IMG/VR virus record: IMGVR_UViG_3300042556_003278
DNA length: 20,839 nucleotides
Origin: an uncultured virus (IMG/VR IMGVR_UViG_3300042556_003278)
Lineage: Duplodnaviria > Heunggongvirae > Uroviricota > Caudoviricetes
Strand: one strand, 5' to 3'
Shown here: piece after piece, positions 8,301-20,839 of the stretch
How the letters are laid out: the number at the start of each line of letters is the position of its first letter
How positions within the stretch are numbered: the stretch's first letter is position 1
Program-made: the position numbers and the translations under genes
Notes under the pieces: generated by a model
The model's input: only the letters and a program-made list of their open reading frames with translations
Told to the model about the DNA's origin: nothing
Databases searched by the model: none

Positions 8301-11300
8301 AAATCAAATCGTTTAAGCGGCGGGCAATCGAGAGTAGTGAAAGTGTTGCTCAACACAGGAAATGTATTTGACGTTGACGCAATAAATAGTGGAGACGTTG
8401 CTGTCTCTGACAGTTTTAACCCTAATGCCACAACTCTAAGGGCGGGGAACGAAATTGTTATTCAGGATTCTAGTCAGGCTAAATCTGCGGACCCCGTCGC
8501 CCGTGACGCCCAAGGCAACGTCATCCCGCTGAGTCAGCGGTTTAACGCGGAGAGCGACAACATTTTTATGTCCGAAGCCGACTTCGGCGTGGACGACAAT
8601 GGCGAAGTCCGTCCTGTCGGACCGCTCGACCGGATCAGCTACAGCGTCAAGATCAACGGCATTCGGGTAGAGACAACGGCCAAGGACCCACAAATTGCCG
8701 CGCGTAACGCGGTCTTCCGCATGTTCAAGGCGCGGGAGGCTGTGCCGTTCGAGGGCCAGACTTACCGCAGTCCTCAAGCTCTGATCAAAGCGATCACGGC
8801 CAGTGGATCGCGGGTCTTTGGCGCGGCCAACTGGGGCCGCAAGTTCTCCAAGCCGACGGTGCGCAAAGCCGTCGATGGCACTGCGATGCTCCCGGCTCGT
8901 CCGTCCGAACAGGCCGAGTTGCCCCTGATCTTTCCGTCCATGGCCCAGACAGCGCGAGTCCGCGTGGGCCAGGCCAGTCCGGACGGGCGGCCCAAGGGCG
9001 GGTTCTGGGACAATCTCAAGGCCATGGTGCGGGGACGTTACAGCGAGACCAAGCGCAAGGTGGGCGGCATCACTTCGTCCGGACGTGCGACTCCGTTGGA
9101 GCGCGAGGTCATCGCCAAGCAACAGGCCAAGATCCAGTCGCTCATGTTCAAAGTTGAGACGATCACCAAGAGCTTGGGGCGCGAGTTGAAGAAAGTCCGC
9201 AAGGCCAACAAGGAGGCGGTCCCGCCCGAGTTAATCAATACGGCGTTGGGTACAACAGAGAACCCCTACACCGACGATCAGGTCAAACAGCTCAACAAGA
9301 CCAAGGACGCTAAGGCCCGCGCTAAGCTCCAGGAACAATTTCGCGCTGACAACGTGAAGGAGGCCCGGCGGATGAGCAACGAGGCTTTGGCTCAGCTCCC
9401 CGGATACAACCCCAAATACGACGGTGTCGACCAATTCCATACGGGCGTGGCTAAACACGTCCTCGACATGCGCAACTATGTGGACGAACTGAGCCGGTTC
9501 TTGATGGAGGGCGGCTACATTCCGGCCAATCTCAAGGCGGTGATCGAGACCAACCTGGGCGTGTATCTGCACCGTTCGTACACTATTTACGACAATCCTC
9601 TGTGGAAAAAATTTATGTTCGATCCGCAGACCGATGAGCATCTCCGTATTCGGGCAGATGCAATGCGGCTGTTTAATCGTTACGCGGTGGCTGAGATTGC
9701 CCGTGAGTTGCGGGATGAGGCTCAAAAAAGCGGGGCTCCTATCTCCCAACGCGACGCGTTACGCTTGGCTTCACGTCAACGCGACAAGATCGCCGATCGG
9801 GCCAGCAATTTGTTGACCGAGTATCTCAGTGTTGCCGACGACAAGAGCTACAACTTCTTCGTCACGGGCGAGCTGCCGGGTGAGCGCAAGCTGGACATCA
9901 TCAAAGTGCGCGGCCAGATCCCCAAGGAGATCCGAGAGCTGTGGGGCGAGATCAAGGACGCCGAGACCAACTTCACCAAGACGATCGGCAAGATGGCCGG
10001 GTTCATCGCGGCGACCGACACGTCCCGAGAACTGGTTCGGATCGGCTTGGAGAACAACTACATGTGGAAAAAAGGCGTCTCCAAGGGCGAGCGCCCGGCC
10101 GGATTCCACCTGATCTACAAAAAAGGCGAGGTAAACCCGAGCGCGGTCAGTCCGCTGGACGACGTTTATGCGCCTGAGGAAGTCGGAGCTTTTATGCGCT
10201 CGTTCCGCGACCGTAAGACCCTGGACGGCTGGGCCAAGTATTTCTCGTTTTTCACAGCTCAAACCATGGCGATGAAGACAATCGGCAACCCGCCACAATC
10301 CTATGTAAGAAACTTTTTGGGTAACATATTGCTAATGATTAACGCGGGCTACGTTATGCCCACTGCGCCGGGACAGATGTGGCAGTCCATGAAGAAGGCC
10401 GCCAAAGTGGCGTTGTCTAGCTCTAATCTCAGGCTCGATGAAGCGATGACTCAGACGGTGCAGGAGGCTATTGCTCGTGGATTAGTGGCTGACAACGTAG
10501 AGTCCAGCCTGATGAAAGAGATGGTCGACGAAAGCGTCGGCGAAGCCGGATTCAAACAACTTTACGAGGCCAGGGCTTTTGAAACGGCTTTTGAAAAAGC
10601 AAAACGAAAAAGCACGGGGGCCATTCGCACTTCGTTTAACGCATTGGCGAAAGTTTACCAAGGCGTTGACGATTTTTGGAAAATCTTTGCTTTTGAAATG
10701 GAGAAATTTCAGCAGCGTAAAGCACATCCGAAGTGGTCCGCCGAGCAACTGGCGGACGAAGCGGCTCGCCGGGTGCGCGACAAAATCCCCACGTATAGCC
10801 TTTCGCCGGAGCTGACCAAAGAGATCCGGCGGATTCCGTTTCTGGCCCCGTTCATCACGTGGACGAGTGAAGTAATACGCACCAGTGCCAACAATCTTGC
10901 GATTGCGCGTGAAGACATTCGGGTTGGCAACGAGACCGGGAATAGGCAAATGAGGCAAAACGGCTACCGAGCTATCTACGGGGCGGGAGCGGCCTATGCG
11001 TTTTTCCCGGTGCTGGCGGCGATTACTAAGTCAATGTTTGGCTACGATGAGGAAGACGAGGACGCGTATCGCCGGGGGCTACCAGAGTACGAGCAAAACG
11101 CGACTTTGATATTTTATGGTCCAAGAGAAGACGGCAGAGCTTCACACTTTAATGTAAGCTATTTAGACCCGTTTCAGATGCGGTTGGAAGGACCGACGGC
11201 ATTTTTCCGGGCGTTGCGCAACGAGGAGCCGCTGACGGATGCGTCAATAGCGGCTTTGCGCGAAGTGTTGCGTCCGGTGTTTTCGGAACAGTTGTTTTTC

Positions 11301-12008
11301 GGGGCTATTATGGATTTGTCTCGCAACCAGACGGCGCAAGGGCGGCCGATTTACAACGAGCAAGATACCGCATACAACAAAACTACGGCTTCGATTGGCC
11401 ATCTTTGGCGCGTCATGGGTCCGGGGGTGCTCGTCGGTTCGGGCAACCGGATCATGCTGGCGGCCGAGGGCACGGTGCTGCCCAGTGGCCGGTCATTTGA
11501 TTTAAGCAACGAAGTTACGGGCATGTTCGCGGGCCAACGCCTTTCGGAACAAGACTTTCGTATGAGTCTTGACGACAAGGTCAAACAATACATAGCGGCC
11601 AGGGCGGACGCCACGCAGTTGTTTTCGCGAGTGTTCTCAAGCCAAGGAACGGTGGACCTGAAAGATATCGGTCCGGCCTACGACAACGCCGAGCGGGCGC
11701 ATCGCGAGCAATTTGAAATGATATCTCAGGCGTTTGAAGACGCCCAACTGATGGGCGTCCCCCGCAAGGATGCGATTCAAATTTTATTGGGGTCGGGCGG
11801 GCGTGGGGTTTCCAAGGACGTGGTCCGTGAAGTCTTGGCTGGGCGTTACCAGCGCTGGATGCCGACGGATGTCCAGATGAAGGGCGCGGCTCGTGGGTTG
11901 GTGCCCGACGGACGGGCTCGCCTCAAAGCGCTGCAGGAGCACTTACAGCGCGTAAAGCAGTTTGATCGCCAGCGCAAAGAGGAGGAACGGGACTCCGCAG
12001 AGCAGTAG
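2316..12008 (+). CDS. 3230-aa large polyvalent virion/DNA-ejection protein with zincin-like (HEHRH) and ART-like domains
   Basis: Single 9.7-kb ORF. It has Ala/Gly-rich hydrophobic N-terminal segments, Pro/Ala linkers, HEHRH at 7197-7211, WHGT...GPGIYF...NEIVI at ~8193-8462, and a long helical C-terminal region (YLHRSY, VRNFLGN, DDFWKI, IPTYS, SYLDPF) of the type seen in large injected phage proteins. Confidence 0.8.
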   Translation: MLRKPRSWVEIEEDEEFQSLAPDRKLKILNDWSTAVQDYGLSTGATPDNAGFGKIRGFRDQKAQEYETLLNPPAEPDKPFFRLGDVASALGGVPKDLYYGVPVAARRLGEGLVRPDQYSAESQQAFAEERRRLEEEQKLQQERELRGESSTMGDWIRQASDSAAFSIANMGVALPASAAAGAAVSAAFPPAAPITGPLTTAAAAGAAMLTSAPVAYRIAGNQFLDDAFNELTKQKGEPLTEEERDKAYNELLPIAQNTALWEAGPEAVGNAVTLGVGKFVFGFGKDAAVDLAAKALGKAGQTASKDFAAGAALKSLQAAGVKAPSAELIEATADKAMKEAAKTGIRRAVEKSAAVLGDVGVETTTEAITQTQQGYDQGRMQQYVQTGSTEGAVNEYEGLAGFGKAYKEVFGPTIATLGMFGATAGGIKAASMALPGNNQKKKEETIDNIVAGAAAIADNLNKSGAPQTAKAMSDVAAKQASAVLRTQQNEEDLVDETTRELLDDLEAKAAEEKKNQPGKPTATFDTPEAESLDALERYRRGELTMDQLAATNARLQIQQRNVARGEGDNPLQQYVDKSKLYSNDVLNLLSQYGGIEAETLADVSNPEAVVAWLQRNDIGPRNRAWRGRELTPFGDQGAGTPLFDQAPKPAAVTLTPAPAPAPEPVVEEPPAAVKIPDQFTPDALAAQPDDEFNENERVVAGAVERLPEGDPRRVAAQQALSNIQAERARRTPAPAAATPAPAAVTPTPAPATPASAAPAPAPAPAPAPAPETPDVDPYSPEELAKLTDDELDEEATLAQRRAELVGTFGNMGVGVEAEAAEANDVLGKVTAEINRRKQPAAPGATNPFEQSGVVVTGTGGVPTDPNRLDATTLEQKNPLGLRVAAKAPSGEVVVGKTGEAHFNLEYPEGSDLGFVDRDGNYLTRAEAAKAQTQALSSAMAPASPTPASSASGVTTTQPKPTATAPKPATQEGDLVLTNDPLPEAPKNQQPKPRQQVGPSPDQPELSLPEGTEGAPRDAGLTQGLRAQGTKVTKPSEAEAQYREQLMAEARAARRISPVRSVDQVAEELKGKFWVPATFRSEVRRRAYARQLLDAARDARFAEAGVTPQRVNPESATENEIYEKALARRSVPSLKTIYGRLTKEAGVSTKKSGNLQQDAANQAKTDQLRDQARAVSTEANRVAAASLGIPNPEAITFAPDYTGKTNNLPQRNTVREDGVSVVENVFVNDPEITARQIDRGMEVTVPKEMRGSVIDGITFNRKTGKVTAAASTMGDGIIVSKPGQLESYAGDVRTKLEENFTIPEEGRGDALVERVRNFEPKKQEEFRRIQREISEATVNLPGEYDGRVKYAAMIIAGEALDKNVSINATTALKQSFRKFFDKIKRREGVFKLSLDAGVNADDDTTWIDLTPDPTGDAADTRSPGGRVGAQTKRVDKRGTDRLQRVMTVAEAEKTVAGINSKLEFGEQLTEAEQALFDPARRMLMTRDTLQAQGALNKIPANRRRGLTMSELEELGGQGIRGFAEEQTQDLRTDLPDDAVQSADSLVNPDDERTEVSQDAIRRTIELIEQAAQEFLGINNIQDTRVASTRMYVTPGEPNTVFINAENLARDLDGVDPDAALAYLKKLLNHEHRHLGLFRGVSRITLDEIGVSLTKKQLREIAETYYANYTFNSEELREQAIQKFIGVAGMSDAELRGIVNGTNGLLIIPTNASRNPRYGLTETQLRDFGNQTIDTIRKLLSPALKDKASVLQEFKNKTEFVSTIPKLDAIRTAVSSTDIIDAFVRSGFVYESTVVEKDVATQSRQTLSSSKYTLAAVEYITILSERLQSGESVQDIGEIPKTIVAKVIAALKAVLRQLQTRLLLVRQQNAVFSQAIKNLESGIKALEMESRLGEAIDAATAGDQAALDAIYQSEAGLTAPQDDVTPQMDADYLAAVERGDMETAQRMVDEAARAAGYTVEAWHGTKKDFEVFERSKTGSLGPGIYFFLTENAAQEWAKSNRLSGGQSRVVKVLLNTGNVFDVDAINSGDVAVSDSFNPNATTLRAGNEIVIQDSSQAKSADPVARDAQGNVIPLSQRFNAESDNIFMSEADFGVDDNGEVRPVGPLDRISYSVKINGIRVETTAKDPQIAARNAVFRMFKAREAVPFEGQTYRSPQALIKAITASGSRVFGAANWGRKFSKPTVRKAVDGTAMLPARPSEQAELPLIFPSMAQTARVRVGQASPDGRPKGGFWDNLKAMVRGRYSETKRKVGGITSSGRATPLEREVIAKQQAKIQSLMFKVETITKSLGRELKKVRKANKEAVPPELINTALGTTENPYTDDQVKQLNKTKDAKARAKLQEQFRADNVKEARRMSNEALAQLPGYNPKYDGVDQFHTGVAKHVLDMRNYVDELSRFLMEGGYIPANLKAVIETNLGVYLHRSYTIYDNPLWKKFMFDPQTDEHLRIRADAMRLFNRYAVAEIARELRDEAQKSGAPISQRDALRLASRQRDKIADRASNLLTEYLSVADDKSYNFFVTGELPGERKLDIIKVRGQIPKEIRELWGEIKDAETNFTKTIGKMAGFIAATDTSRELVRIGLENNYMWKKGVSKGERPAGFHLIYKKGEVNPSAVSPLDDVYAPEEVGAFMRSFRDRKTLDGWAKYFSFFTAQTMAMKTIGNPPQSYVRNFLGNILLMINAGYVMPTAPGQMWQSMKKAAKVALSSSNLRLDEAMTQTVQEAIARGLVADNVESSLMKEMVDESVGEAGFKQLYEARAFETAFEKAKRKSTGAIRTSFNALAKVYQGVDDFWKIFAFEMEKFQQRKAHPKWSAEQLADEAARRVRDKIPTYSLSPELTKEIRRIPFLAPFITWTSEVIRTSANNLAIAREDIRVGNETGNRQMRQNGYRAIYGAGAAYAFFPVLAAITKSMFGYDEEDEDAYRRGLPEYEQNATLIFYGPREDGRASHFNVSYLDPFQMRLEGPTAFFRALRNEEPLTDASIAALREVLRPVFSEQLFFGAIMDLSRNQTAQGRPIYNEQDTAYNKTTASIGHLWRVMGPGVLVGSGNRIMLAAEGTVLPSGRSFDLSNEVTGMFAGQRLSEQDFRMSLDDKVKQYIAARADATQLFSRVFSSQGTVDLKDIGPAYDNAERAHREQFEMISQAFEDAQLMGVPRKDAIQILLGSGGRGVSKDVVREVLAGRYQRWMPTDVQMKGAARGLVPDGRARLKALQEHLQRVKQFDRQRKEEERDSAEQ
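4505..4626 (+). repeat. Low-complexity GCACCN-type repeats encoding an (AP)n/TPAPA linker
   Basis: gcaccagctcccgcacctgcacctgcaccagcaccggcacct translates to APAPAPAPAPAPAP, in frame within the giant ORF. Confidence 0.85.
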
Positions 12009-12680: not shown

Positions 12681-12706
12681 GAAGGGGGCCTTGCGGCCCC
12701 CGTTCT
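12680..12706. terminator. GC-rich hairpin between convergent units, probable (possibly bidirectional) terminator
   Basis: agaa-gggggcc-ttgc-ggccccc-g-ttct is a 7-bp perfect GC stem extended by agaa/ttct. On the - strand the loop is GCAA and the tail is pyrimidine-rich (ttctcacttctt). There is no classic U-run. Confidence 0.7.
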
Positions 12707-13025
12707 ACCTTAGCGGCGCTTCTTGATCGAAGCTGGCTTGGCCGGTTTCGGCGTCATTTTGCTTTTGCCCATGTTGTTTCACCTCCTCTCGCAGTAGTTG
12801 CCCGAAGTCGGGCTGGTAAGTCCGCATGAGCGGATCGTAAATTTTTCCCGGCGGAGCCGTCATTTTTCGCCACGTATCTACAATGTTGATCCACGAAGTT
12901 TCCAAGGGCGCATTCCACTCGTGGACCGGGGGAAAGTTGTGCGGGGCGGTGTGTTTCCAGTTGGGGTTGGTGCAGGCTGTGAGCAGCAGGACCAGGGCTG
13001 TTGGTGCAGGGGACCAGGGGTTCAC
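12705..13025 (-). CDS. Putative lipoprotein (106 aa)
   Basis: Short hydrophobic N-terminus ending in the lipobox-like LLLTA-C, followed by a Pro/Trp-rich mature part. The GTG start overlaps the upstream stop. Confidence 0.6.
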   Translation of the reverse strand: MNPWSPAPTALVLLLTACTNPNWKHTAPHNFPPVHEWNAPLETSWINIVDTWRKMTAPPGKIYDPLMRTYQPDFGQLLREEVKQHGQKQNDAETGQASFDQEAPLR

Positions 13026-13222
13026 TCGGCGTTTTGGATGTCGAAGGTCGGGTTTTGCAGGACGCAGAACTGTTCGCTGCGGAAGTGGCGGATCACTCCG
13101 TCCTTCTCTAGCACCACGGCAAAGACGTCATTGGCGAACGTGCCGCCGTCGCGCACATACATAAGCCAGCCGTAACCGATGTCGGTTTTGACCGGCACAG
13201 GGTTTTTGAATTCGTGGATCAT
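13022..13222 (-). CDS. Small phage hypothetical protein (66 aa)
   Basis: ATG start, 4-nt overlap with the next gene, and a beta-rich NPVPVKT..GYG...NPTF pattern resembling common aquatic-phage small proteins. Confidence 0.7.
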   Translation of the reverse strand: MIHEFKNPVPVKTDIGYGWLMYVRDGGTFANDVFAVVLEKDGVIRHFRSEQFCVLQNPTFDIQNAE

Positions 13223-13268
13223 AAAAAGTGCGGAACACAGACGAAGGGCCTCGGCTGTGTCCCTCGCA
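13223..13268 (-). terminator. Hairpin plus T5 tract, possible intrinsic terminator/attenuator
   Basis: The minus strand reads tgcga-gggacacag-ccgaggcccttcgt-ctgtgttcc-gca-cttttt-ATG. Confidence 0.5.
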
Positions 13269-13306
13269 TGAGCGTCGGTCTCGCGTTAAGTCCCATCCCG
13301 CTCCTG

Positions 13307-14011
13307 CTAAATTGTTTCCGGCACCAAAGTGCGAAGTTCATGTTCGTGGTTCTCCAGGCCGTCCCAGGACCGGAACTGGCGGACGAAGACCTGACCGTTG
13401 TGCGGGTCCATCCAGGCGAACTTGTCGCGGTGTTTCTCGTAGGCGTAAGCGCCCAGGACATTGAACTCGGAGAAGCTGCGGTAGGGCCGGTTGGTGATGT
13501 ATTGTTCGAGCGACATGCTGTGCCGCTCTTCGAGAAAGAGCCGCACCTCGACGTGCAGCCAGCGCGGATACATAAACGGGTGCCGCCGCATGAACTCATA
13601 CTGGGGCTCCCAGCCCAGCACTTCGGTCACGATGGGCTGCCAGGGCTCGCGTCCCACCTTTTCGTAGGGCTCGTAGTAGACGATCGGTTTGCCATCGACC
13701 ATAAGCGAAAGCGGCGACATGGGTTTAGTCAGCACGGTGTCCGAGTCCCAATGCAAAATGTATTCGGCGTCGGAGTAGACGTCGGCCATGAGCTTGCTGA
13801 TTTGCTGACCCAGGTAGTCGTCGCCGTAGATCGGGCACTCGTGGACTTGCTCGGCGGTCAGGTGGGCCAACAGGTGACTGTCACCCGCAGGCACAATAAC
13901 ATGGTAGTTGCGGAGCCCCTTGGCATGGCGGTGCAGGGAGCGCAGGGCATAGGCGAGCCATCCGAAATCGCCGCGATAGGAGCGAAGGACTAAGTCTGTG
14001 ACGGGATACAT
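13307..14011 (-). CDS. GT-A-like nucleotide-sugar transferase (DUF6492-like), 234 aa
   Basis: N-terminal DLVLRSY...LRSL pattern, GYLGQQ-like 'YLGQQISKL' motif and a DxD motif in YILHWDSDTVL. Adjacent to an FkbM methyltransferase. Confidence 0.65.
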   Translation of the reverse strand: MYPVTDLVLRSYRGDFGWLAYALRSLHRHAKGLRNYHVIVPAGDSHLLAHLTAEQVHECPIYGDDYLGQQISKLMADVYSDAEYILHWDSDTVLTKPMSPLSLMVDGKPIVYYEPYEKVGREPWQPIVTEVLGWEPQYEFMRRHPFMYPRWLHVEVRLFLEERHSMSLEQYITNRPYRSFSEFNVLGAYAYEKHRDKFAWMDPHNGQVFVRQFRSWDGLENHEHELRTLVPETI

Positions 14012-14646
14012 AGGATGTCGTATTGAGGACCACGGTCTTCCGGGTAGCAGGTGACGTCGTAGCCGAATTCTTTTTCGATGAGCCAGTGAAGGTCGGCCGG
14101 GGTTTTTTTACGACCGGCCAGGGCGCTCTCGTTGACCTCGACCCAGAGGACCGGCTTGTGCTGCGAGATGGTCTGGTGCGCTCCGACCAGGGCTTCGTAT
14201 TCGCAGCCTTCAATGTCGAGTTTGAAGAAGTCCAGTCGCCGGAGGTTCAGGGAATCAAGGGTCGAGAGGGGGACTGAGCCGATTCCGCTGCCGATTCGGC
14301 TTGCTCCGGCGTTGGCATCGAAGTGGTAGTCGGCCAGGAAGTCATGATCGGAGAGCCCAGCGTTGAAGGTCACGGCCTGCGGGCAGTTGTGGCAGAGACA
14401 GGAGTAGGCGGCGGGGTTGGGTTCGAAGGCAAAGACCTTGCCTTGCGGGCCCACAGCCTTGAGATAGGCGATCGTGTGGTCGCCGATGAAGGCCCCGGCA
14501 TCCACGACCCAGTCGCCCGCTTTGATGTGCGGCAGGATCAGGCCGATCGAGTAAACGTCATGGTCCAGGCGGCGCTCCTCCTCGACCCATTTGGAGATGT
14601 GGGTGTCGCCCTCGATGACCGCGATGCCGTTGTCCAGGATCTTCAT
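13990..14646 (-). CDS. FkbM-family SAM-dependent methyltransferase (218 aa)
   Basis: Motifs VVDAGAFIGDHT, VFAFEPNP, TLDSL and DFFKLDIEGCEYEALVGA...KPVLWVE. Confidence 0.92.
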   Translation of the reverse strand: MKILDNGIAVIEGDTHISKWVEEERRLDHDVYSIGLILPHIKAGDWVVDAGAFIGDHTIAYLKAVGPQGKVFAFEPNPAAYSCLCHNCPQAVTFNAGLSDHDFLADYHFDANAGASRIGSGIGSVPLSTLDSLNLRRLDFFKLDIEGCEYEALVGAHQTISQHKPVLWVEVNESALAGRKKTPADLHWLIEKEFGYDVTCYPEDRGPQYDILCIPSQT

Positions 14647-14906
14647 ATCGTGTAACTGCTTAGGTAGATAGGTGTGCGCGGCCCGAGATAGGCGCAGGAG
14701 ATGTTGAAGTCGAAATACTCGACCGCTTCTTCGTAGGACATGTCGCGTTCGAGGACTTGAATAACTCGAACAGTATCGTAGACGACAACGTCGTTGCCGT
14801 CGGTTTTCTTGGCGACCCCGAGAATGGCCGCATCAAAGTCTTGATCGTCCAGGAACATAAGTTCTGGACCGAAGGTTTCAGATAACTTTTCACGAAGGTT
14901 GATCAC
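14643..14906 (-). CDS. Conserved acidic phage hypothetical protein (87 aa)
   Basis: The FDAAILG...VVYD...MSYEEAVEYFDFNI..AYLG..TP pattern is familiar from aquatic phage genomes. 4-nt overlaps on both sides. Confidence 0.8.
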   Translation of the reverse strand: MINLREKLSETFGPELMFLDDQDFDAAILGVAKKTDGNDVVVYDTVRVIQVLERDMSYEEAVEYFDFNISCAYLGPRTPIYLSSYTI

Positions 14907-15073
14907 TCAATACCGGCGAACTTGGCAAACTTGGTGGAGGCCAGGACACGGGCGCGGCGCTCCACGCGCTCTTCGTACTCGCGGCGGAACTCGCTCCACA
15001 CGAAACGAACAGCGACCGTAAGGACTATGCCGATAGTGACTCCGCAGATAAATGCTCCCATGGTTGCGCTCAT
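14903..15073 (-). CDS. Small single-pass membrane protein (~56 aa)
   Basis: Start re-called at ATG 15073 (ATGA overlap with the upstream stop). Hydrophobic GAFICGVTIGIVLTVAV is followed by a charged tail. Confidence 0.65.
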   Translation of the reverse strand: MSATMGAFICGVTIGIVLTVAVRFVWSEFRREYEERVERRARVLASTKFAKFAGIE

Positions 15074-15216
15074 CTGGTCGCAAGAAAATAGAGCCCGATG
15101 TTGCTGAAGGCATAGCCAGCGTAGGCCATGCACATGCTCGCGTTGCCCTTGACCCCCTGTTCCAGGGAGACATAGGCATAGATCAGGCCGGTCAGGATGA
15201 TGAGCGAACCCGACAC
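15070..15216 (-). CDS. Small two-helix membrane protein (~48 aa)
   Basis: Start re-called at GTG 15216. MSGSLIILTGLIYAYVSLEQGVKGNASMCMAYAGYAFSNIGLYFLATR resembles a widespread small phage membrane protein. Confidence 0.7.
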   Translation of the reverse strand: MSGSLIILTGLIYAYVSLEQGVKGNASMCMAYAGYAFSNIGLYFLATR

Positions 15217-15220
15217 GGCG

Positions 15221-15403
15221 CTAGACCAAGGCCTTGCCCCGCACGAGGACACTGATGGCGGCGCGCAGGAGCACTCCGGCCAGGATGAAACGCCCGCCAA
15301 CGGTCAAGGCTCTCGCATAGAAAGCCGACTCTTCGGGCTGGATCGGATAGGTTGATTTGGTTTTGCGGGATTTCCGCTTGGGTTTGGTTTTGGTGGTTGT
15401 CAT
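15221..15403 (-). CDS. Small protein with basic N-terminus and hydrophobic C-terminus (60 aa)
   Basis: ATG lies 3 nt after the upstream stop and the ORF fills the gap exactly. Confidence 0.6.
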   Translation of the reverse strand: MTTTKTKPKRKSRKTKSTYPIQPEESAFYARALTVGGRFILAGVLLRAAISVLVRGKALV

Positions 15404-15406
15404 AAA

Positions 15407-15769
15407 TTATTTGTCCAATTTCTTGTGCGCTTCGGCGTAGAGAAACTGGGTCAGGTTGGCGTGCGCTTCTTCGTCTTTGCAGCCGACGTGCTTGAGAAAC
15501 CCCCGTGTGACGTGCACCAGTTCATGGACCAGGGTGCCGAAGGTTCCGTCGTTGTGCGCTTCAGGCCAGGAGTCCAGCCAGATGAAAGCGTAGCAGTCAC
15601 AGACAATGGCCCAGCCGTTGGCGTTTTCGAGTTTGTTGGTGACTTCGACGTCGCAGTGCCGCGCACACTCGGCTTTGGCCGAACGGGTTGAGCCGCCGAC
15701 CTGGATACGGACTTCCAGACCGAAGGTCTTTTCGTTGAGGGTGACGCGGCGAATTTTCACAGCGGCCAC
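15407..15769 (-). CDS. Small zincin-like (HExxH) protein (120 aa)
   Basis: GTLVHELVH followed by DEEAHA, which supplies a candidate third Glu ligand. Confidence 0.75.
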   Translation of the reverse strand: MAAVKIRRVTLNEKTFGLEVRIQVGGSTRSAKAECARHCDVEVTNKLENANGWAIVCDCYAFIWLDSWPEAHNDGTFGTLVHELVHVTRGFLKHVGCKDEEAHANLTQFLYAEAHKKLDK

Positions 15770-15942
15770 TTCTTCAAATGACGAAAATCCCGTGGCTCGG
15801 TCACTTGAGCCGTTAGGTTGCAGATCCCGCAGGTATCCTCATGCCACGTGGAGACGTGTCCCTTGGGCATGCCGTGCCCGTGCTCCAACCCGCAGGTCAG
15901 GCAGATCCAGTCAGGATACGGTTTTTCTTCGTTTGTCTTCAT
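15757..15942 (-). CDS. Small Zn-finger-like protein (~61 aa)
   Basis: Start re-called at ATG 15942. Motif WICLTCG...TWHEDTCGIC...VTEPRDFRHL. Confidence 0.7.
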   Translation of the reverse strand: MKTNEEKPYPDWICLTCGLEHGHGMPKGHVSTWHEDTCGICNLTAQVTEPRDFRHLKKWPL

Positions 15943-16333
15943 GGATGAAGTGCCAGGCCTCCAGGCAGTCGTGGTGGTGCAGGGCCAGGTCCAGGTGCTG
16001 GGTGGCCAGGCGGTCCACCGGCACAATGAACCAGTGGTTCAGGGGTGTGACGTAGGCGGCGATGAGGTCACACTCTTCCAGCGTGTAGCTGTGTTTGACC
16101 TTGCGCCCGTGGTGCAAGTTGACGCGATAGCGACCCCGGCAATCGGCTTTGTGACAGCTCTTGATCTGGATACGCCGCAGGCCTTTGGGGGTGTCGACAA
16201 CCACGTCATAGCGGCAGTCTTCCCCGTAAGGCATGTTGACTTTCCAGCCGCGTTTCATGCACTCGGCCATGAAGAGGAGCTGGTTTTTCTCCCCCAAATG
16301 TTTCCAGTTGGTTTCATGGTCTTGCTGCCGCAT
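15911..16333 (-). CDS. PD-(D/E)XK endonuclease, group-I-intron-associated type (PDDEXK_5-like), 140 aa
   Basis: Motifs GE...F...C...GW.V..PYGEDCRYDVVVD...RIQIKS...Y...ECDLIAAY. Confidence 0.85.
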   Translation of the reverse strand: MRQQDHETNWKHLGEKNQLLFMAECMKRGWKVNMPYGEDCRYDVVVDTPKGLRRIQIKSCHKADCRGRYRVNLHHGRKVKHSYTLEECDLIAAYVTPLNHWFIVPVDRLATQHLDLALHHHDCLEAWHFIHEDKRRKTVS

Positions 16334-16342
16334 GGGGCTTTG

Positions 16343-16525
16343 TTACTTCTTCACGTAGCCGTGCGCGTCGCTGGGCCAGCCCCGGTTGAAGTCGTCGCAC
16401 TGCGCCAGGCTGAGCAGCGTTAAGCCCATGAGCAAAGCGCAGACGATGATAGTAGCGAACTTGTGCCGCGCCCGAGCCAGCTCGTGGTTCTCGTAGCGCA
16501 GGTAGTCGAGGTCTTCGGGTTTCAC
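16343..16525 (-). CDS. Small membrane/secreted protein (60 aa)
   Basis: ATGA-coupled to the upstream gene. Hydrophobic segment FATIIVCALLMGLTLLSLA. Confidence 0.65.
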   Translation of the reverse strand: MKPEDLDYLRYENHELARARHKFATIIVCALLMGLTLLSLAQCDDFNRGWPSDAHGYVKK

Positions 16526-16737
16526 TTCATGCTCCGGTTGGCCGACTTGGAGGTGACGCGCAGGTTGGTGGCCGCGTTGTGCAAGCCGCTGACATGATGG
16601 ACATCATTGCCGTCGCCCTTGCGGACGAGGCCTTTGGCTTCCATTTGTCGACGGGCGGCGTTGCGGATGGCCCGGCGCTTCTTTTGCTCCTCGGTCCCTT
16701 GGTAGGTTTTGTATTCGTTTTGGTAGTCTCTACTCAC
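16522..16737 (-). CDS. Minimal HNH-like protein (71 aa)
   Basis: RDY..EY...RAIRNAARR...KGDGNDVHH....N...NLRV....NR gives H-N-N spacing typical of small phage HNH proteins. Confidence 0.75.
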   Translation of the reverse strand: MSRDYQNEYKTYQGTEEQKKRRAIRNAARRQMEAKGLVRKGDGNDVHHVSGLHNAATNLRVTSKSANRSMK

Positions 16738-16972
16738 GAGGCAGAATGAGCTGGGGGTTGATGATGATGTTATTCTCGGGAGCCGGGGCTTCGGGCTCCG
16801 AGGTCAACTGCGGCAGTTCGGATTGCTCGCTGAGCAACAGAACCGTGTCGGCGAGTTTGAGAGACAACACCGCAACGGTGCCGATCTCAAAACTCTTGTC
16901 TGATGGTATGCTTGCCAGAATCCCGTTAAGGGCGTGCCCGGCCAGCATCAGTCTGTGGTCTTCTTTTCTCAT
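16730..16972 (-). CDS. Small helical phage hypothetical protein (80 aa)
   Basis: R..LAGHALNGILAS...A..S.KLADTVL resembles the common phage 'A..A.QG.LA...A...ADA.L' helical hairpin family. Confidence 0.7.
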   Translation of the reverse strand: MRKEDHRLMLAGHALNGILASIPSDKSFEIGTVAVLSLKLADTVLLLSEQSELPQLTSEPEAPAPENNIIINPQLILPRE

Positions 16973-16979
16973 AAAAATT

Positions 16980-17210
16980 TCAGCGGTATCGCGAGGTCTT
17001 GTCGGCGATCTTCGAGGGTTGCTTGACGAATTGTTTTCCGGCGCTGTCGCCCTTGGCCTTGGCCCGGTTGGTCGCGGCTTTTTCGGCCGGGCTCAGGGAC
17101 TTCCAGGCGGCGTCGGGCAGGTAGCGCTTCTTGCCTTCGGAAGGACTGCCGTCGGACGTGCGCCACATTTGGGCGGTCCAGTCTTTGAGGGATTGCTGGG
17201 AAGGTTTCAT
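16980..17210 (-). CDS. DUF5872-like protein, C-terminal half (76 aa)
   Basis: SQQSLKDWT.Q.WRT..G......RYLPDAAWKSLS.AEKAATNRAK....GKQFVKQP. Confidence 0.8.
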   Translation of the reverse strand: MKPSQQSLKDWTAQMWRTSDGSPSEGKKRYLPDAAWKSLSPAEKAATNRAKAKGDSAGKQFVKQPSKIADKTSRYR

Positions 17211-17383
17211 CGGTATCCTCCGCCCGCCTCCTTATAGGCCTTGGCCAATAGCTGTGCTTTGCGGGCGCTCCATTCCCCAGGGTCGCCGCCCTTGCCACCG
17301 GCCTTGATGCGTTCAAACTGGCGTTTGCGCATCTCGGGCTTGGTGTAGTTGCCTGCTTCGTTGACTGTTGATTTTGATTTCAT
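17207..17383 (-). CDS. DUF5872-like protein, N-terminal half (~58 aa)
   Basis: Start re-called at ATG 17383. NYTKPEMRKR....IKAG.KGGDPGEWSARKAQLLA..YK.AGGGY. ATGA overlap with the next gene. Confidence 0.8.
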   Translation of the reverse strand: MKSKSTVNEAGNYTKPEMRKRQFERIKAGGKGGDPGEWSARKAQLLAKAYKEAGGGYR

Positions 17384-17427
17384 GTTGTGGACGCGTGTTT
17401 TGCTTGGACCGGATGCGCGTCCCCCGG

Positions 17428-17523
17428 TCATCTATCGAGAGCTACGAGTGTTGATGAAGTCAGTAGAACCGTCGCCACGTAGTATGTAGCCACTAGTTTT
17501 CTGATTGTCGGAATCGGTAGCAT
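17428..17523 (-). CDS. Unannotated 31-aa hydrophobic peptide MLPIPTIRKLVATYYVATVLLTSSTLVALDR
   Basis: Translated by hand. It is preceded by AGAAAGGAGGTGAT ending 6 nt before the ATG and fills an otherwise empty gap. Confidence 0.55.
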   Translation of the reverse strand: MLPIPTIRKLVATYYVATVLLTSSTLVALDR

Positions 17524-17529
17524 GGAAGC

Positions 17530-17543
17530 ATCACCTCCTTTCT
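17530..17543 (-). promoter_or_regulatory. Extended Shine-Dalgarno sequence
   Basis: AGAAAGGAGGTGAT. The + strand reads ATCACCTCCTTTCT, which matches the canonical 16S rRNA 3' end. Confidence 0.7.
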
Positions 17544-17579
17544 AGGCCTGGTTGGCTTTGGTGTGTGGGAGGTTTGTTT

Positions 17580-18470
17580 CTAGGCAGCCTCCCTCTGCTG
17601 GGTAATTGGTTGGTTGAATCCCATCGCGGCCAGGATGCCCGCCGCCTTGCTCTTGAGGTCCTCGCGGACCGCTTCGTTCTCGCGCACGTCCTCGATGTCA
17701 AAGGGCGTGATGTCGCGCAGGACACGTTGGCGCAGGTTCTCTAGCTCTTGGTCCTTGGTCACGTTGAGTGAGGGGATGAGTTGGCAGAGTTCGGCCAGGT
17801 TGGTGAGGAGCGACGCGTGGATGCGGTTGCCCTCCTTCTTGGCGGAGACTTCGGTCATGCGCTTGACGATGTGATCGAGCCGCTCGGTGAGTCGGCGGTA
17901 CAGATCGTTGCGGGCGTCGTTGACCGCCTCGGCCACGCGCAGGTCGGCTTGAGCCCGGAGTTCGGACATGGCCTCTTCGGGCATGTCATCCAGGCGGAAG
18001 TCGCGGCTGTCAGGCATCGGCATGTAGCTGACGTCGACATAGAACTTGGTGCGAACCTCGGAGGCCGACGGGTAATCAGCGCGGTTGGCCAGGGCCCCGA
18101 GTTGCAGGATCGCGGTGTCGCGGTGCTTCTCGTAGTCGGCCATGAACTGGTCGAAGAGCGACTGCAGGGAGGTGATCCTTGCTCTCAACTCATCGGTGAA
18201 TTTCTCCCACTGGGCCACGGGGAGCAGACGCACAGCGTCGTCGCCCCAAGGCAGGGTTTGCTGGTTGACCCAGGTCCGGAGGGCCGAAGCGGCGCTCTGG
18301 ATGGGTTTGACGGACTCCTCGGGCAGGATGTTCTTGACGAACGCTCCGGCGTTGGAGTTGGCGTTTTTGCTGATTAAGACCTCACGGGTGACGTTGCGGT
18401 CGGTTTTCTTCGGGTTGAATAAGCCGATGTGCAGGCTTACCAACATTGCTTGATTGCGGATGGTGCTCAT
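17580..18470 (-). CDS. DUF3150-like protein (~296 aa)
   Basis: Start re-called at ATG 18470, downstream of a sigma70-like promoter. Motifs AMLVSLHIG....KK.D, TLPW.D...RLLP and DYPS..E.R.KF, with a helical C-terminus ending LNVTKD.ELE. Neighbours a DUF2201/vWA gene. Confidence 0.7.
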   Translation of the reverse strand: MSTIRNQAMLVSLHIGLFNPKKTDRNVTREVLISKNANSNAGAFVKNILPEESVKPIQSAASALRTWVNQQTLPWGDDAVRLLPVAQWEKFTDELRARITSLQSLFDQFMADYEKHRDTAILQLGALANRADYPSASEVRTKFYVDVSYMPMPDSRDFRLDDMPEEAMSELRAQADLRVAEAVNDARNDLYRRLTERLDHIVKRMTEVSAKKEGNRIHASLLTNLAELCQLIPSLNVTKDQELENLRQRVLRDITPFDIEDVRENEAVREDLKSKAAGILAAMGFNQPITQQREAA

Positions 18471-18520
18471 GGTGTGACTTTGTGTTGTTGTATTTGGGTG
18501 GTTGTCACCTGAATACGGGA

Positions 18521-18548
18521 ACAATATGTCCCCAGCTCAGGGTGTCAA
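18521..18548 (-). promoter_or_regulatory. Sigma70-type promoter
   Basis: Minus strand TTGACA (18548-18543), 16-nt spacer, TATTGT (18526-18521), in the intergenic gap upstream of the DUF3150-like gene. Confidence 0.7.
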
Positions 18549-18552
18549 GGGG

Positions 18553-18894
18553 TTATTTTTTGGTGGTTTTGCTACGGCGCTTCTTGCCGTGCTCCTCTTC
18601 CCAGAGGCTCTGGACAACGTCGATGCCCATCTCGACGTCGGTCATATCAGTTCCAGCGTAGGCTTTACGCAGCTTCTGCCGGTCCCGGCGCAACAGGTCG
18701 TTGAGCCCAGGGGCGGGGGTTTCGTAGCCCAGGATCTCGGCCAACTCGTGGGCACTGGCCAGCGTGGCTTCCCGCACCCCGAAGGGTTTTTTGAAAAGCT
18801 CGCGCTGCAGGGATTCGAGGTCGCCGAGGATCTTATCGGCTAGTTTGACTGGTATATTAACGGTCTTCTTTTGCGGTGTGGTTTTCTTTTTCAT
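18553..18894 (-). CDS. Hypothetical protein with basic termini (~113 aa)
   Basis: Start re-called at ATG 18894 (MKKKTTPQKK) after an A/C-rich leader. Codon usage resembles neighbouring genes. Confidence 0.7.
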   Translation of the reverse strand: MKKKTTPQKKTVNIPVKLADKILGDLESLQRELFKKPFGVREATLASAHELAEILGYETPAPGLNDLLRRDRQKLRKAYAGTDMTDVEMGIDVVQSLWEEEHGKKRRSKTTKK

Positions 18895-19013
18895 GTGGAT
18901 AGATTTGTAGTGTGTGAAATGGTTCCCGTCTACCGTGGTTTGCCAGCAACGGACGGGCACGCTGTCGAGAAACAACTGCATGGGCTCGGGGCACTCACGG
19001 CTTGCCCGATTGT

Positions 19014-20288
19014 TCAGTTGGCGGTGTTGACCCGGACGACCTCGCCCCAGGGATACTCGGCCCCGCCATAGTCGACCCAGATAACCGGGCAGTCGGGGGA
19101 CTCCTTGGGGAAGTCGCCGTAGCCGTCGGTGAAATAGACGATGGCCTCGGGCGGCTTGGTCATGTTACGGGCGTGGTCGAAGACCGGCTTGAAGTCGGTG
19201 CCGCCACCACCCTTGGGTCGGAAGGACGTGACGTCGTCGCCGTCGCCATACTCCTCGACCGTGTTGACCTGCGTGTCACAGTCGATGACGGTGATACGCT
19301 CGGGGCGCACGGTGTCCATGCAGTATTGCACCTCGCCAAGGAACTTGGTGAGGAGGCCGTCCTGAATGGAACCGGAGGTGTCGATGGCAACAACGAACTC
19401 GCCGACGCGTTCTGAATACAACGTAGGCAGGTAGATGTCGTCCTCCATGAACCGGCGGTCGGGGCGCTGCTCGTCGTAGTCGTCGGCGGCTGCAGCGGAC
19501 AAGAGATCACGCAGGATGTGACGCCAGTCCTGCTGACCCTTGAGGTGCTTCTCCACGATGCGGGCGATGTTGCCTGCGCCGCGTCCTTGCAGCTTGGCCG
19601 AGTTGTGGCCCTCGACGAGGCGGTTCTGCCACTCGCCCTCGCTGTTGCCGGGCGCGTCGGCGGGCTCCATGAAGTCGCCCATACCGCCGTCGCCGGGGGT
19701 CGGGTCGGGCTTGCCTTTGCCGGGCTGGTCGCCGGGCTCGTTTGTCGGAGTGTTGCCCTCACACGGGCCGTCGCCGTCTTGTGGCTCGCCCTCTTCCTCG
19801 CCGGGCGGCGGAGGAGGCGGGGGAGGTGGAGTGTCCTCGCCGAGCAGGGGATAGATCTCCTCGCCGACCATGTTGTTATACTTGGCGTCGATGAGCGCGC
19901 CCTTGGGCAACTTGAACGGAGCGACGCGACCGGCGGCCGACTCGTCCTCGTTGTATTGCACGAGGTAGTTGTTGATCTCGTAGTCGGTGGCCATGTTCCA
20001 CTTGCGCATCTCACGATCGCCCAAGCGCCAGAGATGTCCGAACGCGGGGTGCAGGACCTCGTGGCCCAGCACAGTGAACAGCTCCTGATCGTCGAGCGTT
20101 GCGGAGAACGCGGGGTTGTAGAACAGGGTCACTCCGTCGGTGCAGAAGGTCGGCACCGCCGTCGACGCTTTGAGGTTCATCTTGAGGATGAGCGTGGCGA
20201 AGAACGGATGGTCGACGACCATCCGCACGATCTGGCGCTCGATGCGGAGCGCCTCGTCGTTGGCGTTGAATGTAGGTTTAGATTTCAC
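19014..20288 (-). CDS. DUF2201-type metallopeptidase plus vWA domain protein (424 aa)
   Basis: HPFFA...CTDG..LFYNP.F, HEVLH...H, WN.ATDYEIN, an acidic/poly-Pro linker, then the MIDAS motif IDTSGS, GGGGTDF.PVF and YFTDGYG. Confidence 0.92.
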   Translation of the reverse strand: MKSKPTFNANDEALRIERQIVRMVVDHPFFATLILKMNLKASTAVPTFCTDGVTLFYNPAFSATLDDQELFTVLGHEVLHPAFGHLWRLGDREMRKWNMATDYEINNYLVQYNEDESAAGRVAPFKLPKGALIDAKYNNMVGEEIYPLLGEDTPPPPPPPPPGEEEGEPQDGDGPCEGNTPTNEPGDQPGKGKPDPTPGDGGMGDFMEPADAPGNSEGEWQNRLVEGHNSAKLQGRGAGNIARIVEKHLKGQQDWRHILRDLLSAAAADDYDEQRPDRRFMEDDIYLPTLYSERVGEFVVAIDTSGSIQDGLLTKFLGEVQYCMDTVRPERITVIDCDTQVNTVEEYGDGDDVTSFRPKGGGGTDFKPVFDHARNMTKPPEAIVYFTDGYGDFPKESPDCPVIWVDYGGAEYPWGEVVRVNTAN

Positions 20289-20290
20289 AG

Positions 20291-20503
20291 TTAGTATTTG
20301 GCTACTCGCAAGTTGTCGGCTCCGGACCAGTCACTGCTCCACTCATCGACTTCCGTATAAAACGGAGAGTCAAAGTTATCGTCGATGAACGAGTCAGAAA
20401 CGATGCGGTTAGCTTCTTTTTGCGACGTTGCTTCGACTTCAACTTCCGTGTAGTGCGGAACGTCGATGACAACAGTTACGCTGTATTTGGATTTTTTCTT
20501 CAC
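20291..20503 (-). CDS. Small acidic protein (70 aa)
   Basis: KY.VTV......EVEVEATSQKEA beta-beta-alpha pattern common in phage early proteins, with a D/E-rich C-terminus. GTG start overlaps the upstream stop. Confidence 0.7.
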   Translation of the reverse strand: MKKKSKYSVTVVIDVPHYTEVEVEATSQKEANRIVSDSFIDDNFDSPFYTEVDEWSSDWSGADNLRVAKY

Positions 20504-20697
20504 AGGGTTTTTCCTTTCGATGGTGCGCTGTGGAATATGCTTCGGCAGGCGGCGCGAGCTGCTGCTTCGACGCGGTCGACCGAAGACTGCCTAATGCGTG
20601 TGATGTGATACGCAGGGGGAAGGTGCTTTTGGTTTTCCTTCGCGTAATCGAGGATGAAACGTTTTACTTTGGATGGACTGACGATGTAGTTACTCAT
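20500..20697 (-). CDS. Candidate histone-fold protein (65 aa)
   Basis: Start re-called at ATG 20697, 2 nt after the upstream stop. IVSPSKVKRFI...TRIRQSSVDRVEAAARAACRSI.....KGKTL resembles short prokaryotic histones. Confidence 0.55.
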   Translation of the reverse strand: MSNYIVSPSKVKRFILDYAKENQKHLPPAYHITRIRQSSVDRVEAAARAACRSIFHSAPSKGKTL

Positions 20698-20699
20698 AG

Positions 20700-20839
20700 T
20701 TATTTGATGCCGAGGATGATGTTGCCGTTCTTGTTGGCCCACTGGGCGAAGGCCGGGGACTTGACCGGGGAGTCTGCGCCGGTCATGCGGCCACGGATGG
20801 CCAGCTTGACCGTGAGCACGTCGATCGGCTTGGGGAGCC
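20700..20839 (-). CDS. C-terminal 45 codons of a truncated gene, probably a MoxR-like AAA ATPase
   Basis: Hand translation gives LPKPIDVLTVKLAIRGRMTGADSPVKSPAFAQWANKNGNIILGIK*. The LP....L...AF..W...N..I ending and the proximity to DUF2201/vWA suggest the partner ATPase. No Walker motifs are visible in the window. Confidence 0.5.
   Translation of the reverse strand, partial: LPKPIDVLTVKLAIRGRMTGADSPVKSPAFAQWANKNGNIILGIK

Follow-up and report, generated by a model that had tools for sequence, protein, structure and literature searches.

A 65-codon gene near one end of a 20,839-nt stretch of DNA from an uncultured virus of the class Caudoviricetes (IMG/VR record IMGVR_UViG_3300042556_003278; the whole stretch is referred to as the window) belongs to a family of short phage proteins for which, on balance, we favor a histone fold reduced to its minimum. 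According to this reading, the gene encodes a divergent homologue of the Bd0055/HBb-HTkC-HLp histones that is devoid of helix α3 and of the RD clamp and would bind DNA as a dimer. The histone-fold part of the reading has moderate to good support from a computed homology signal to the α3 histones, a predicted two-helix fold and a handshake-like dimer model. Binding to DNA as a dimer is considered probable on the basis of conserved contact positions and positive charge.

The gene had been noticed in a preliminary description of the window, in which a relative of α3-truncated prokaryotic histones such as Bd0055 was proposed, hidden among the open reading frames (ORFs) by a wrong upstream start. 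The 65 residues quoted there are exactly the translation of 20500-20697 on the minus strand, and the view of the start was right. The longest ORF at the locus (80 aa, from a GTG at 20742) begins while the upstream gene is still being read; only 2 nt separate the ATG at 20697 from the TAA of that gene (20700-20702), and this ATG matches the start position of the homologues, which begin with MSN or MNN.

Sequence and structural likeness to α3-truncated histones

A search with the single window sequence returned 26 proteins at E ≤ 0.01 among 28 candidates, and in a profile search that scored 8000 candidates, 658 clusters matched at E ≤ 1. The top 120 of these 658 matches all have E ≤ 3.3e-21, and none of these 120 carries a Pfam domain. 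In an exhaustive search of 1.84 billion cluster representatives, eight were found at E ≤ 0.001, including the repetitive 2032-aa protein P0030, which was later dropped as a spurious multi-stretch match. The family is uniform in length, with 59-60 aa in 97 of 121 proteins. Longer entries are N-terminal over-calls: a search for longer members gave two ORF calls extended at the N-terminus and no fusions or C-terminally longer forms. The C-terminus reads KGKTL in 101 of the 121 proteins, and the chain ends one residue after the K-T pair in 118, the other three having one extra residue. The gene is under purifying selection, with a median ratio of nonsynonymous to synonymous substitution rates (dN/dS) of 0.13 in 120 of the 190 pairs among 20 distinct viral-contig copies; only pairs with dS between 0.05 and 3 were kept.

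A relationship to histones is supported by profile comparison. When a 102-sequence family profile was searched against 177,635 sequences of the Protein Data Bank (PDB), nine matches were obtained at E ≤ 10, with HTkC (9f2c, E 0.46), Bd0055 (8fvx, E 0.68) and HBb (8cmp, E 0.74) at ranks 3-5. The alignments with Bd0055 and HBb are colinear over query positions 3-57 and that with HTkC covers 28-58; such a concentration of α3 histones among the top matches appears striking. For a comparison set, the α1 motif of Bd0055 was back-translated and scanned over a genome collection, yielding 120 Bdellovibrionota loci and 96 distinct proteins. These read VVTSKVKK[LF]IKE...GRKTVMxRD, which agrees with the Bd0055 pattern given in the preliminary description.

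Direct alignment of the 102 family sequences with 38 Bd0055-type histones from Bdellovibrionota by hhalign gave a score of 35.2 (Prob 90.3%, E 1.5e-6, 54 columns), and a local rerun gave 35.0 (Prob 91.7%). In 200 column permutations of the Bdellovibrionota alignment the mean was 9.7 (standard deviation (sd) 2.3, maximum 20.2), and the reversed-alignment controls scored 8.8 and 9.7. With the N-terminus through SKVKK trimmed from both alignments, the score was 22.0 (P 2.5e-4) and the maximum of 200 trimmed permutations was 18.1. The histone signal is thus not one shared motif alone, because the trimmed score beats all 200 permutations. As a positive control, the B. bacteriovorus member of the comparison set passes the histone model PF00808 with 23.7 bits (cut-off 21.4). 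When all six frames of 151 Bdellovibrionota genomes were searched by HMMER with the family profile, the matches were weak and mostly partial (best E 0.0028), a few of them being full-length in frames of 74-81 aa. One Bacteriovorax stolpii metagenome-assembled genome was seen to hold a 132-aa ORF with two tandem Bd0055-like histone folds (L104, 583-978), and 78-aa ORFs of two other loci, L034 and L047, resemble the second half of similar doublets.

The aligned positions include those that contact DNA in HBb. In both the PDB profile search and the hhalign alignment, S9, K10, V11 and K12 of the family fall on the identically numbered residues of Bd0055 and HBb. In α1, S9 and K10 are each found in 81 of 102 members and lysine or arginine at position 12 in 101; in L1, a serine in 98 and an arginine within T-R-V-S in 93; and in L2, K61 in 100, K63 in 94 and T64 in 99. 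The R-V-S of L1 was aligned by HMMER on the R-V-S of HTkC. The 102 members have a median isoelectric point (pI) of 10.4 and a net charge of +7, compared with 8.7 and +2 in the Bd0055 set. Between α1 and the L1 serine, the family is 7 residues longer than Bd0055. The extended L1 loop of the preliminary description is therefore real; the window copy adds 5 more residues (LPPAY). The L1 arginine of the family (R34) may take the part of a sprocket arginine.

Structure prediction with AlphaFold2 (AF2) and the family alignment gave a helix-loop-helix for the window protein (pLDDT (predicted local distance difference test) 83.9, helices 8-21 and 37-57) and for the 60-aa member P0021 (pLDDT 91.2, helices 8-22 and 32-52). 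The short first helix, the arginine-bearing loop (R34), the long second helix and the terminal KGKTL that had been read from the sequence are accordingly all present. The models are all-helical, without an α3 and without the β-arms of the DNABII proteins, and neither the window protein nor the 26 members match PF00216 (HU/IHF, DNABII). With Foldseek, all but one of the 50 rows displayed for the window model were histone chains, and P0021 was superposed on HBb with a template modeling (TM) score of 0.68-0.69, a root-mean-square deviation (rmsd) of 2.1-2.2 Å and 29-30% identity. A Foldseek-independent search of 48,161 chains or representatives placed histone folds in 19 of the top 20 rows for the window model and at ranks 1-17 for P0021. 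The latter matched TAF4 with Z 5.5, HTkC with Z 5.2 (rmsd 2.1 Å, 52 aligned residues, 33% identity), HLp with Z 4.8 (26% identity) and HBb with Z 4.6 (rmsd 2.0 Å, 50 aligned residues, 36% identity). In the ESM Atlas, PF00808 is assigned to the nearest named clusters (score 0.86), and histone H3 and a Bdellovibrionota PF00808 cluster (TM 0.58) are among the structure rows. On its own, the fold match would not be sufficient; its weight comes from the identity levels and from the agreement with the sequence evidence.

The modeled homodimer points in the same direction. With the family alignment, the interaction prediction score from aligned errors (ipSAE) was 0.79 in all three runs, with contact agreement of at least 94% and partner pLDDT of at least 87; the best of three controls scored 0.00. 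As a yardstick, 20 of 30 proteins whose structures were solved as one-chain pairs attained the dimer mark, compared with 1 of 23 whose structures were solved as single chains. The two α2 helices cross antiparallel at residues 46/47 (contacts 47-47, 46-46, 43-50/51 and 39-54), α1 is packed on the α2 of the partner, and the interface includes L1 residues 30-36 and L2 residues 63-65, with L1 against the L2 of the partner. The predicted interface is thus handshake-like. In the modeling and fold comparison suggested in the preliminary description, a handshake-like dimer was predicted and histone folds stood at the top of the fold searches, the dimer score being a measure of likeness and not of binding.

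Several results weigh against this assignment. PF00808, PF00125 and PF09123 match none of the 26 members even at E ≤ 10, and the window protein has no Pfam match at E ≤ 1. A first PDB search, with a 26-sequence profile, gave no histone, and the histone E-values of 0.46-0.74 in the later search are not significant singly. On the structural side, Foldseek at E ≤ 0.001 was empty for both models (the E-values exceed 1), as was the search of BFVD at E ≤ 0.001. The VIA Z values of 4.3-5.5 lie below about 8, so that the match may be only a common arrangement, and the ESM Atlas has a poor model of its own for the window protein (pLDDT 0.66, predicted TM score (pTM) 0.43). The pass of the dimer model may partly reflect the memory of solved histone dimers. 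Further, the family has neither the one-turn α3 nor the RD clamp, both defining for α3 histones: in a test for RxTxxxxD, no residue stands at the aspartate position and the arginine position is G or K, depending on the register. The HBb contact R57 also has no counterpart in the family. Finally, the window copy departs from near-invariant positions (R23Q, K31H, V35I, S36R and V55F), its L1 reading T-R-I-R where the family reads T-R-V-S, and it may not behave as a typical member. Of the α3-truncated histone first proposed, the relationship to the short histone fold of Bd0055 has thus held up in the profile-profile comparison, the fold searches, the PDB profile matches (weak but specific) and the dimer model, but α3 is absent altogether rather than truncated, and the RD clamp is missing.

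Proposed mode of action and alternative explanations

We propose that the protein consists of α1, L1, α2 and L2 only and dimerizes by handshake, and that the dimer would bind DNA without sequence preference. Contact would be made via the first turn of α1 (S9, K10 and K12) and the paired L1/L2 loops (R34, K61, K63 and T64), as in HBb. This surface is proposed because the HBb contact positions are conserved in the family; the residues reported to contact DNA in HBb are T8, S9, K10, K12, T23, S24, K52, T53 and R57 (PMC11317129). Because α3 is absent, neither four-helix-bundle tetramers nor nucleosome-like wrapping would be expected, and the protein would therefore bend, coat or bridge DNA as dimers. 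It would be a phage-made nucleoid-associated protein acting in the infected cell on phage DNA, host DNA or both; action inside the infected cell is most likely because the gene is encoded among non-structural genes. In one related contig, L004, two family paralogues lie about 3 kb apart (6600-6848 and 9950-10183; 40% and 49% identical to the window protein), and heterodimers may be formed there.

A more specific role is conceivable, though on the present evidence unlikely: the mini-histone could polymerize on phage DNA into a coat like the Bd0055 sheath seen in vitro, shielding it from restriction enzymes, CRISPR and other DNA-targeting defenses. The swapping of the L1-α2-L2 segment among near-identical phages of one lake population, described below, would then be the trace of an arms race. 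If this were true, bacteriophages would have an anti-defense strategy based on histones, and no smaller functional histone fold would be known.

Alternatively, the protein could be a histone-fold homologue that serves as a protein-protein module, in the manner of the TAFs, docking on a host or phage factor instead of binding DNA in general. In its favor, histone-fold chains of TAF4 and TFIID head the structural matches (Z 5.4-5.5), the family lacks the RD clamp by which L2 is structured in DNA-binding histones, and cassette swapping would fit a variable partner contact. We nevertheless find this improbable, since the HBb DNA-contact positions are the best-conserved surface positions in the family, a net charge of +7 and a pI of 10.4 are unusual for a pure adaptor, and identity is 33-36% to the DNA-binding HBb and HTkC versus 12-13% to the TAF4 and TFIID chains.

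A sequence- or structure-specific DNA-binding regulator, of middle or late transcription or of a replication origin, rather than an abundant architectural protein, is likewise a doubtful explanation. The gene has neighbors that act in replication and DNA metabolism (in 14 of 24 loci, DUF932, a DnaG-type primase or both are encoded within 0.9-4.2 kb), the co-swapped neighbor in the L002 allele encodes an HTH_17 protein, and the gene is one small member of an operon without a strong promoter of its own. Against it, every HBb contact that is conserved in the family is made to the DNA backbone, and non-specific binding is suggested in the HBb work (PMC11317129). The presence of the family in at least two unrelated genome contexts also fits a generic function better.

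We give still less credence to a convergent basic helix-loop-helix dimer whose likeness to histones is superficial. It would account for the failure of every curated histone model to detect the family and for the Foldseek E-values, two-helix arrangements being common and Z values below 8 possibly meaning no more than that. Against it stand a profile-profile score about 10 sd above the column shuffles that survives removal of the motif, structure-based identities of 33-36% to HBb and HTkC, the in-register alignment of the three α3 histones among the top five PDB profile matches, and the handshake geometry of the predicted dimer. A chance ORF is hardly credible: an obvious Shine-Dalgarno sequence is missing before the ATG, but hundreds of homologues share the length, start and stop, dN/dS is 0.13, and the gene is tightly coupled to both neighbors.

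Gene neighborhood, cassette exchange and distribution

The histone-like gene is part of a tightly coupled operon, because its stop overlaps the GTG of the next gene (GTGA, 20500-20503). A scan of the adjoining DNA found no promoter-like or terminator-like site beside it. No Shine-Dalgarno-like sequence precedes the ATG (20698-20720), either in the window or in the related contig L002. Translation may rely on coupling to the upstream gene, or the host may not use Shine-Dalgarno sites. The positions of the gene, its elements and its neighbors are collected in Table 1.

Table 1. Candidate histone-fold gene, its predicted elements and adjoining features in the window
Feature	Positions	Strand	Basis and remarks
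Candidate minimal histone-fold protein gene, 65 aa	20500..20697	-	ATG 20697, stop TGA 20500-20502; ORF, homologues, dN/dS, profile-profile match, models
Predicted α1, residues 8-21	20635..20676	-	AF2 secondary structure, alignment; S9-K10-V11-K12 motif common with Bd0055/HBb
Predicted L1 loop, residues 22-36, including R34	20590..20634	-	AF2, alignment; residues 30-36 in predicted dimer interface
Five-residue insertion LPPAY, residues 26-30	20608..20622	-	Present in 2 of 102 aligned members (P0001, P0031)
Predicted α2, residues 37-57, putative dimerization helix	20527..20589	-	AF2, dimer model
Predicted L2 and C-terminus, residues 58-65, APSKGKTL	20503..20526	-	Ends one residue past K-T; residues 63-65 in predicted interface
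3' end of upstream gene, ~350-aa P-loop protein, putative ATPase	20700..20839	-	Identity to related ORFs; cut by window edge
70-aa ORF in swapped cassette	20291..20503	-	Translationally coupled (GTGA overlap); weak DpnD/PcfM match (E 0.0011, 19.3 bits, under cut-off of 25)
Swapped cassette: histone gene from about codon 19 onward plus next small ORF	20280..20641	-	Contig comparison
DUF2201_N + DUF2201 gene (putative metallopeptidase plus VWA-like)	19014..20288	-	Pfam E 3e-38 and 1.9e-24

The upstream gene fragment is 97.8% identical to the C-termini of ORFs in the related contigs L001 and L002, and 56% identical to 348-360-aa ORFs in L015, L016 and L019. These ORFs contain the motif GVGKS; the copy in L019 has no Pfam match at E ≤ 0.001. 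Downstream, none of the 24 related loci holds a homologue of the 70-aa ORF, and the DUF2201 gene is 92-95% identical in L001 and L002.

Comparison with these close relatives revealed an exchange that cuts through the histone-like gene. The proteins flanking it in the L001 and L002 phages are 92-100% identical to those of the window, but the histone-like protein only 62%. Identity with L002 is lost after about codon 18 (20642) and regained at 20279, where the DUF2201 gene starts; in the two flanks, nucleotide identity is 92% and 94.7%, and no alignment was obtained between 20641 and 20280. In place of the 70-aa ORF, L002 has a 137-aa HTH_17 gene. In the lake-water run X5, 20279 and 20642 are connected in one contig by 577 other letters, and another contig covers 20214-20636. 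Both alleles thus coexist in that run, because contigs of each type are present.

The family occurs in 24 IMG/VR loci, which show three kinds of context. Six have the arrangement of the window, with the putative P-loop ATPase, the histone-like gene and the DUF2201 protein. In 14, a DUF932 gene lies 0.9-2.4 kb upstream and/or a DnaG primase 2.2-4.1 kb downstream, often with GP88. The remaining four are without these markers. DUF2201 homologues of less than 60% identity were found in 314 phage records, with Schitoviridae among the best rows. In two Schitoviridae records, Vibrio virus SBP1 (L163) and Erwinia phage Pastis (L164), an annotated ATPase gene lies just upstream of the DUF2201 metallopeptidase gene; the gap is 12 nt in Pastis, and an HNH endonuclease gene (2989-3489) stands between them in SBP1. 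The likeness of the putative ATPase to those of the Schitoviridae records is one of gene position and annotation. The ATPase/DUF2201 junction, at which the histone-like gene lies in the phages related to the window, looks as if it may be an insertion spot, and because of this no function was drawn from the neighbors.

On a larger scale, the gene belongs to a block of small non-structural genes that run leftward (12705-20839); a rightward block, divergent from it, includes a 3230-aa ORF (2316-12008, plus strand). This ORF contains an ART-PolyVal ADP-ribosyltransferase domain (residues 1957-2030), and its C-terminal part shares about 25% identity with structural proteins from the virions of the Cellulophaga phages phi18:3, phi19:3 and phi13:2, and also with a Pseudoalteromonas phage protein annotated as an ADP-ribosyltransferase. 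Its product is probably a polyvalent virion protein that is ejected. The leftward block also holds a PD-(D/E)XK_5/homing-endonuclease-like gene (15911-16333, minus strand), an FkbM-type methyltransferase gene (13990-14646, minus strand) and a 314-aa gene (17580-18524) that is 70-99% conserved in six related loci and matches no family. The window has no tRNA and no Rfam family.

The family was seen only in metagenomic and viral contigs, i.e. in uncultured phages, and near-identical DNA is present in lake-water metagenome runs. Among 50,697 phage records, no match was found by tblastn with the window protein or P0021, where the low-complexity filter may hide the alanine-rich helix, or by megablast with window positions 17000-20839. 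No relative was confirmed when the genomes of 185,579 prokaryote species were scanned with peptide patterns as seeds; the scan depends on two such patterns and does not prove absence. In the nearest record, G001 (26 kb, 39% complete), neither the window protein nor PF00808 found a match. The window protein and P0021 had no match in PADLOC, NCBIfam gave only chance-level rows, and PHROGs gave one weak row (phrog_26803, E 0.022).

Comparison with known histone-fold proteins

Work on the histones of bacteria and phages is recent and still sparse, and in the literature searched, phage histone-fold proteins are found only as predictions, in two surveys (Schwab et al. 2024; Liu et al. 2025). Both surveys started from existing histone hidden Markov models (HMMs) or InterPro. 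The present family escapes Pfam, yet it is large and occurs in at least two phage genome architectures, which would mean that HMM-based censuses undercount viral histones. If our reading is true, the histone fold can work without α3 or the RD clamp, which would set a new lower limit for the fold. A protein of 60 residues would also be tractable for asking whether phage histones protect, compact or regulate the DNA of the phage or remodel the host nucleoid.

The closest relatives in size and motif are Bd0055 and HBb (8CMP, 8FVX, 9EZZ and 9F0E; 64 aa, compared with 59-65 aa in the family). Both groups have the α1 motif [ST]-S-K-V-K-[KR], an α2 of similar length and the K-T of L2, and they share a dimer-only state, in the family by prediction. 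Among the DNA-contact positions named for HBb, those conserved in the family are S9, K10, K12, the L1 serine and the L2 K-T. In HBb, the K-T is followed by 11 residues (V-M-A-R-D-I-V-I-D-H-L) that form the one-turn α3 and provide the RD clamp (R51-D58) and the contact R57; the family ends before this point. It differs from Bd0055 also in an α1-L1 segment that is 7 residues longer (12 in the window copy), in a net charge of +7 versus +2, in having been found in phage and metagenome contigs only, and in going undetected by PF00808, which detects Bd0055. Moreover, the family has an arginine in L1, whereas Bd0055 is described by Hocher et al., in the part of that work concerned with this residue, as having no 'sprocket' arginine.

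The best structural matches of the family among α3 histones are HTkC of Thermococcus kodakarensis (9F2C) and HLp of Leptospira perolatii (9QT0). Both are face-to-face histones, a class which, in the sections on oligomerization of PMC12701072, tetramerizes via the C-terminal part of α2, L2 and α3; they have the α3 that the family lacks. The same holds for the nucleosomal histones of the HMf type in archaea, in which a full α3 forms the four-helix-bundle interface between dimers. TAF4 (1H3O chain C), the top structural match (Z 5.4-5.5, with all 49 chain residues aligned), is a eukaryotic heterodimer partner of TAF12 and only 12-18% identical to the family.

Among viral proteins, the 'phage histones' of Schwab et al. 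(2024), e.g. A0A2E7QIQ9, and the VTTH proteins of Liu et al. (2025) resemble the family in being phage-encoded, in their α3-type fold, in the absence of RxTxxxD and in a conserved lysine near position 10. They carry a C-terminal tetramerization helix, whereas the family ends at L2. The BBVH proteins of Liu et al. (2025) are, like the family, small dimeric histone-fold proteins of Caudoviricetes contigs. However, the four viral relatives of Bd0055 that were fetched keep [QG]RKTVMARD and a C-terminal extension, and the family has neither. Fifteen of the 24 contig identifiers of the family were looked up in the readable tables of Liu et al. (PMC13681535) and none was present (a control identifier prefix was found 75 times). 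Motif strings of the family were likewise found 0 times in supplement files 1-3 of PMC13681535, where the control GRKT also gave 0, the alignments being gapped. Judged by its sequences, the family is a large, phage-only variant of the α3 histones in which α3 is wholly gone, and in this respect it differs from every class described.

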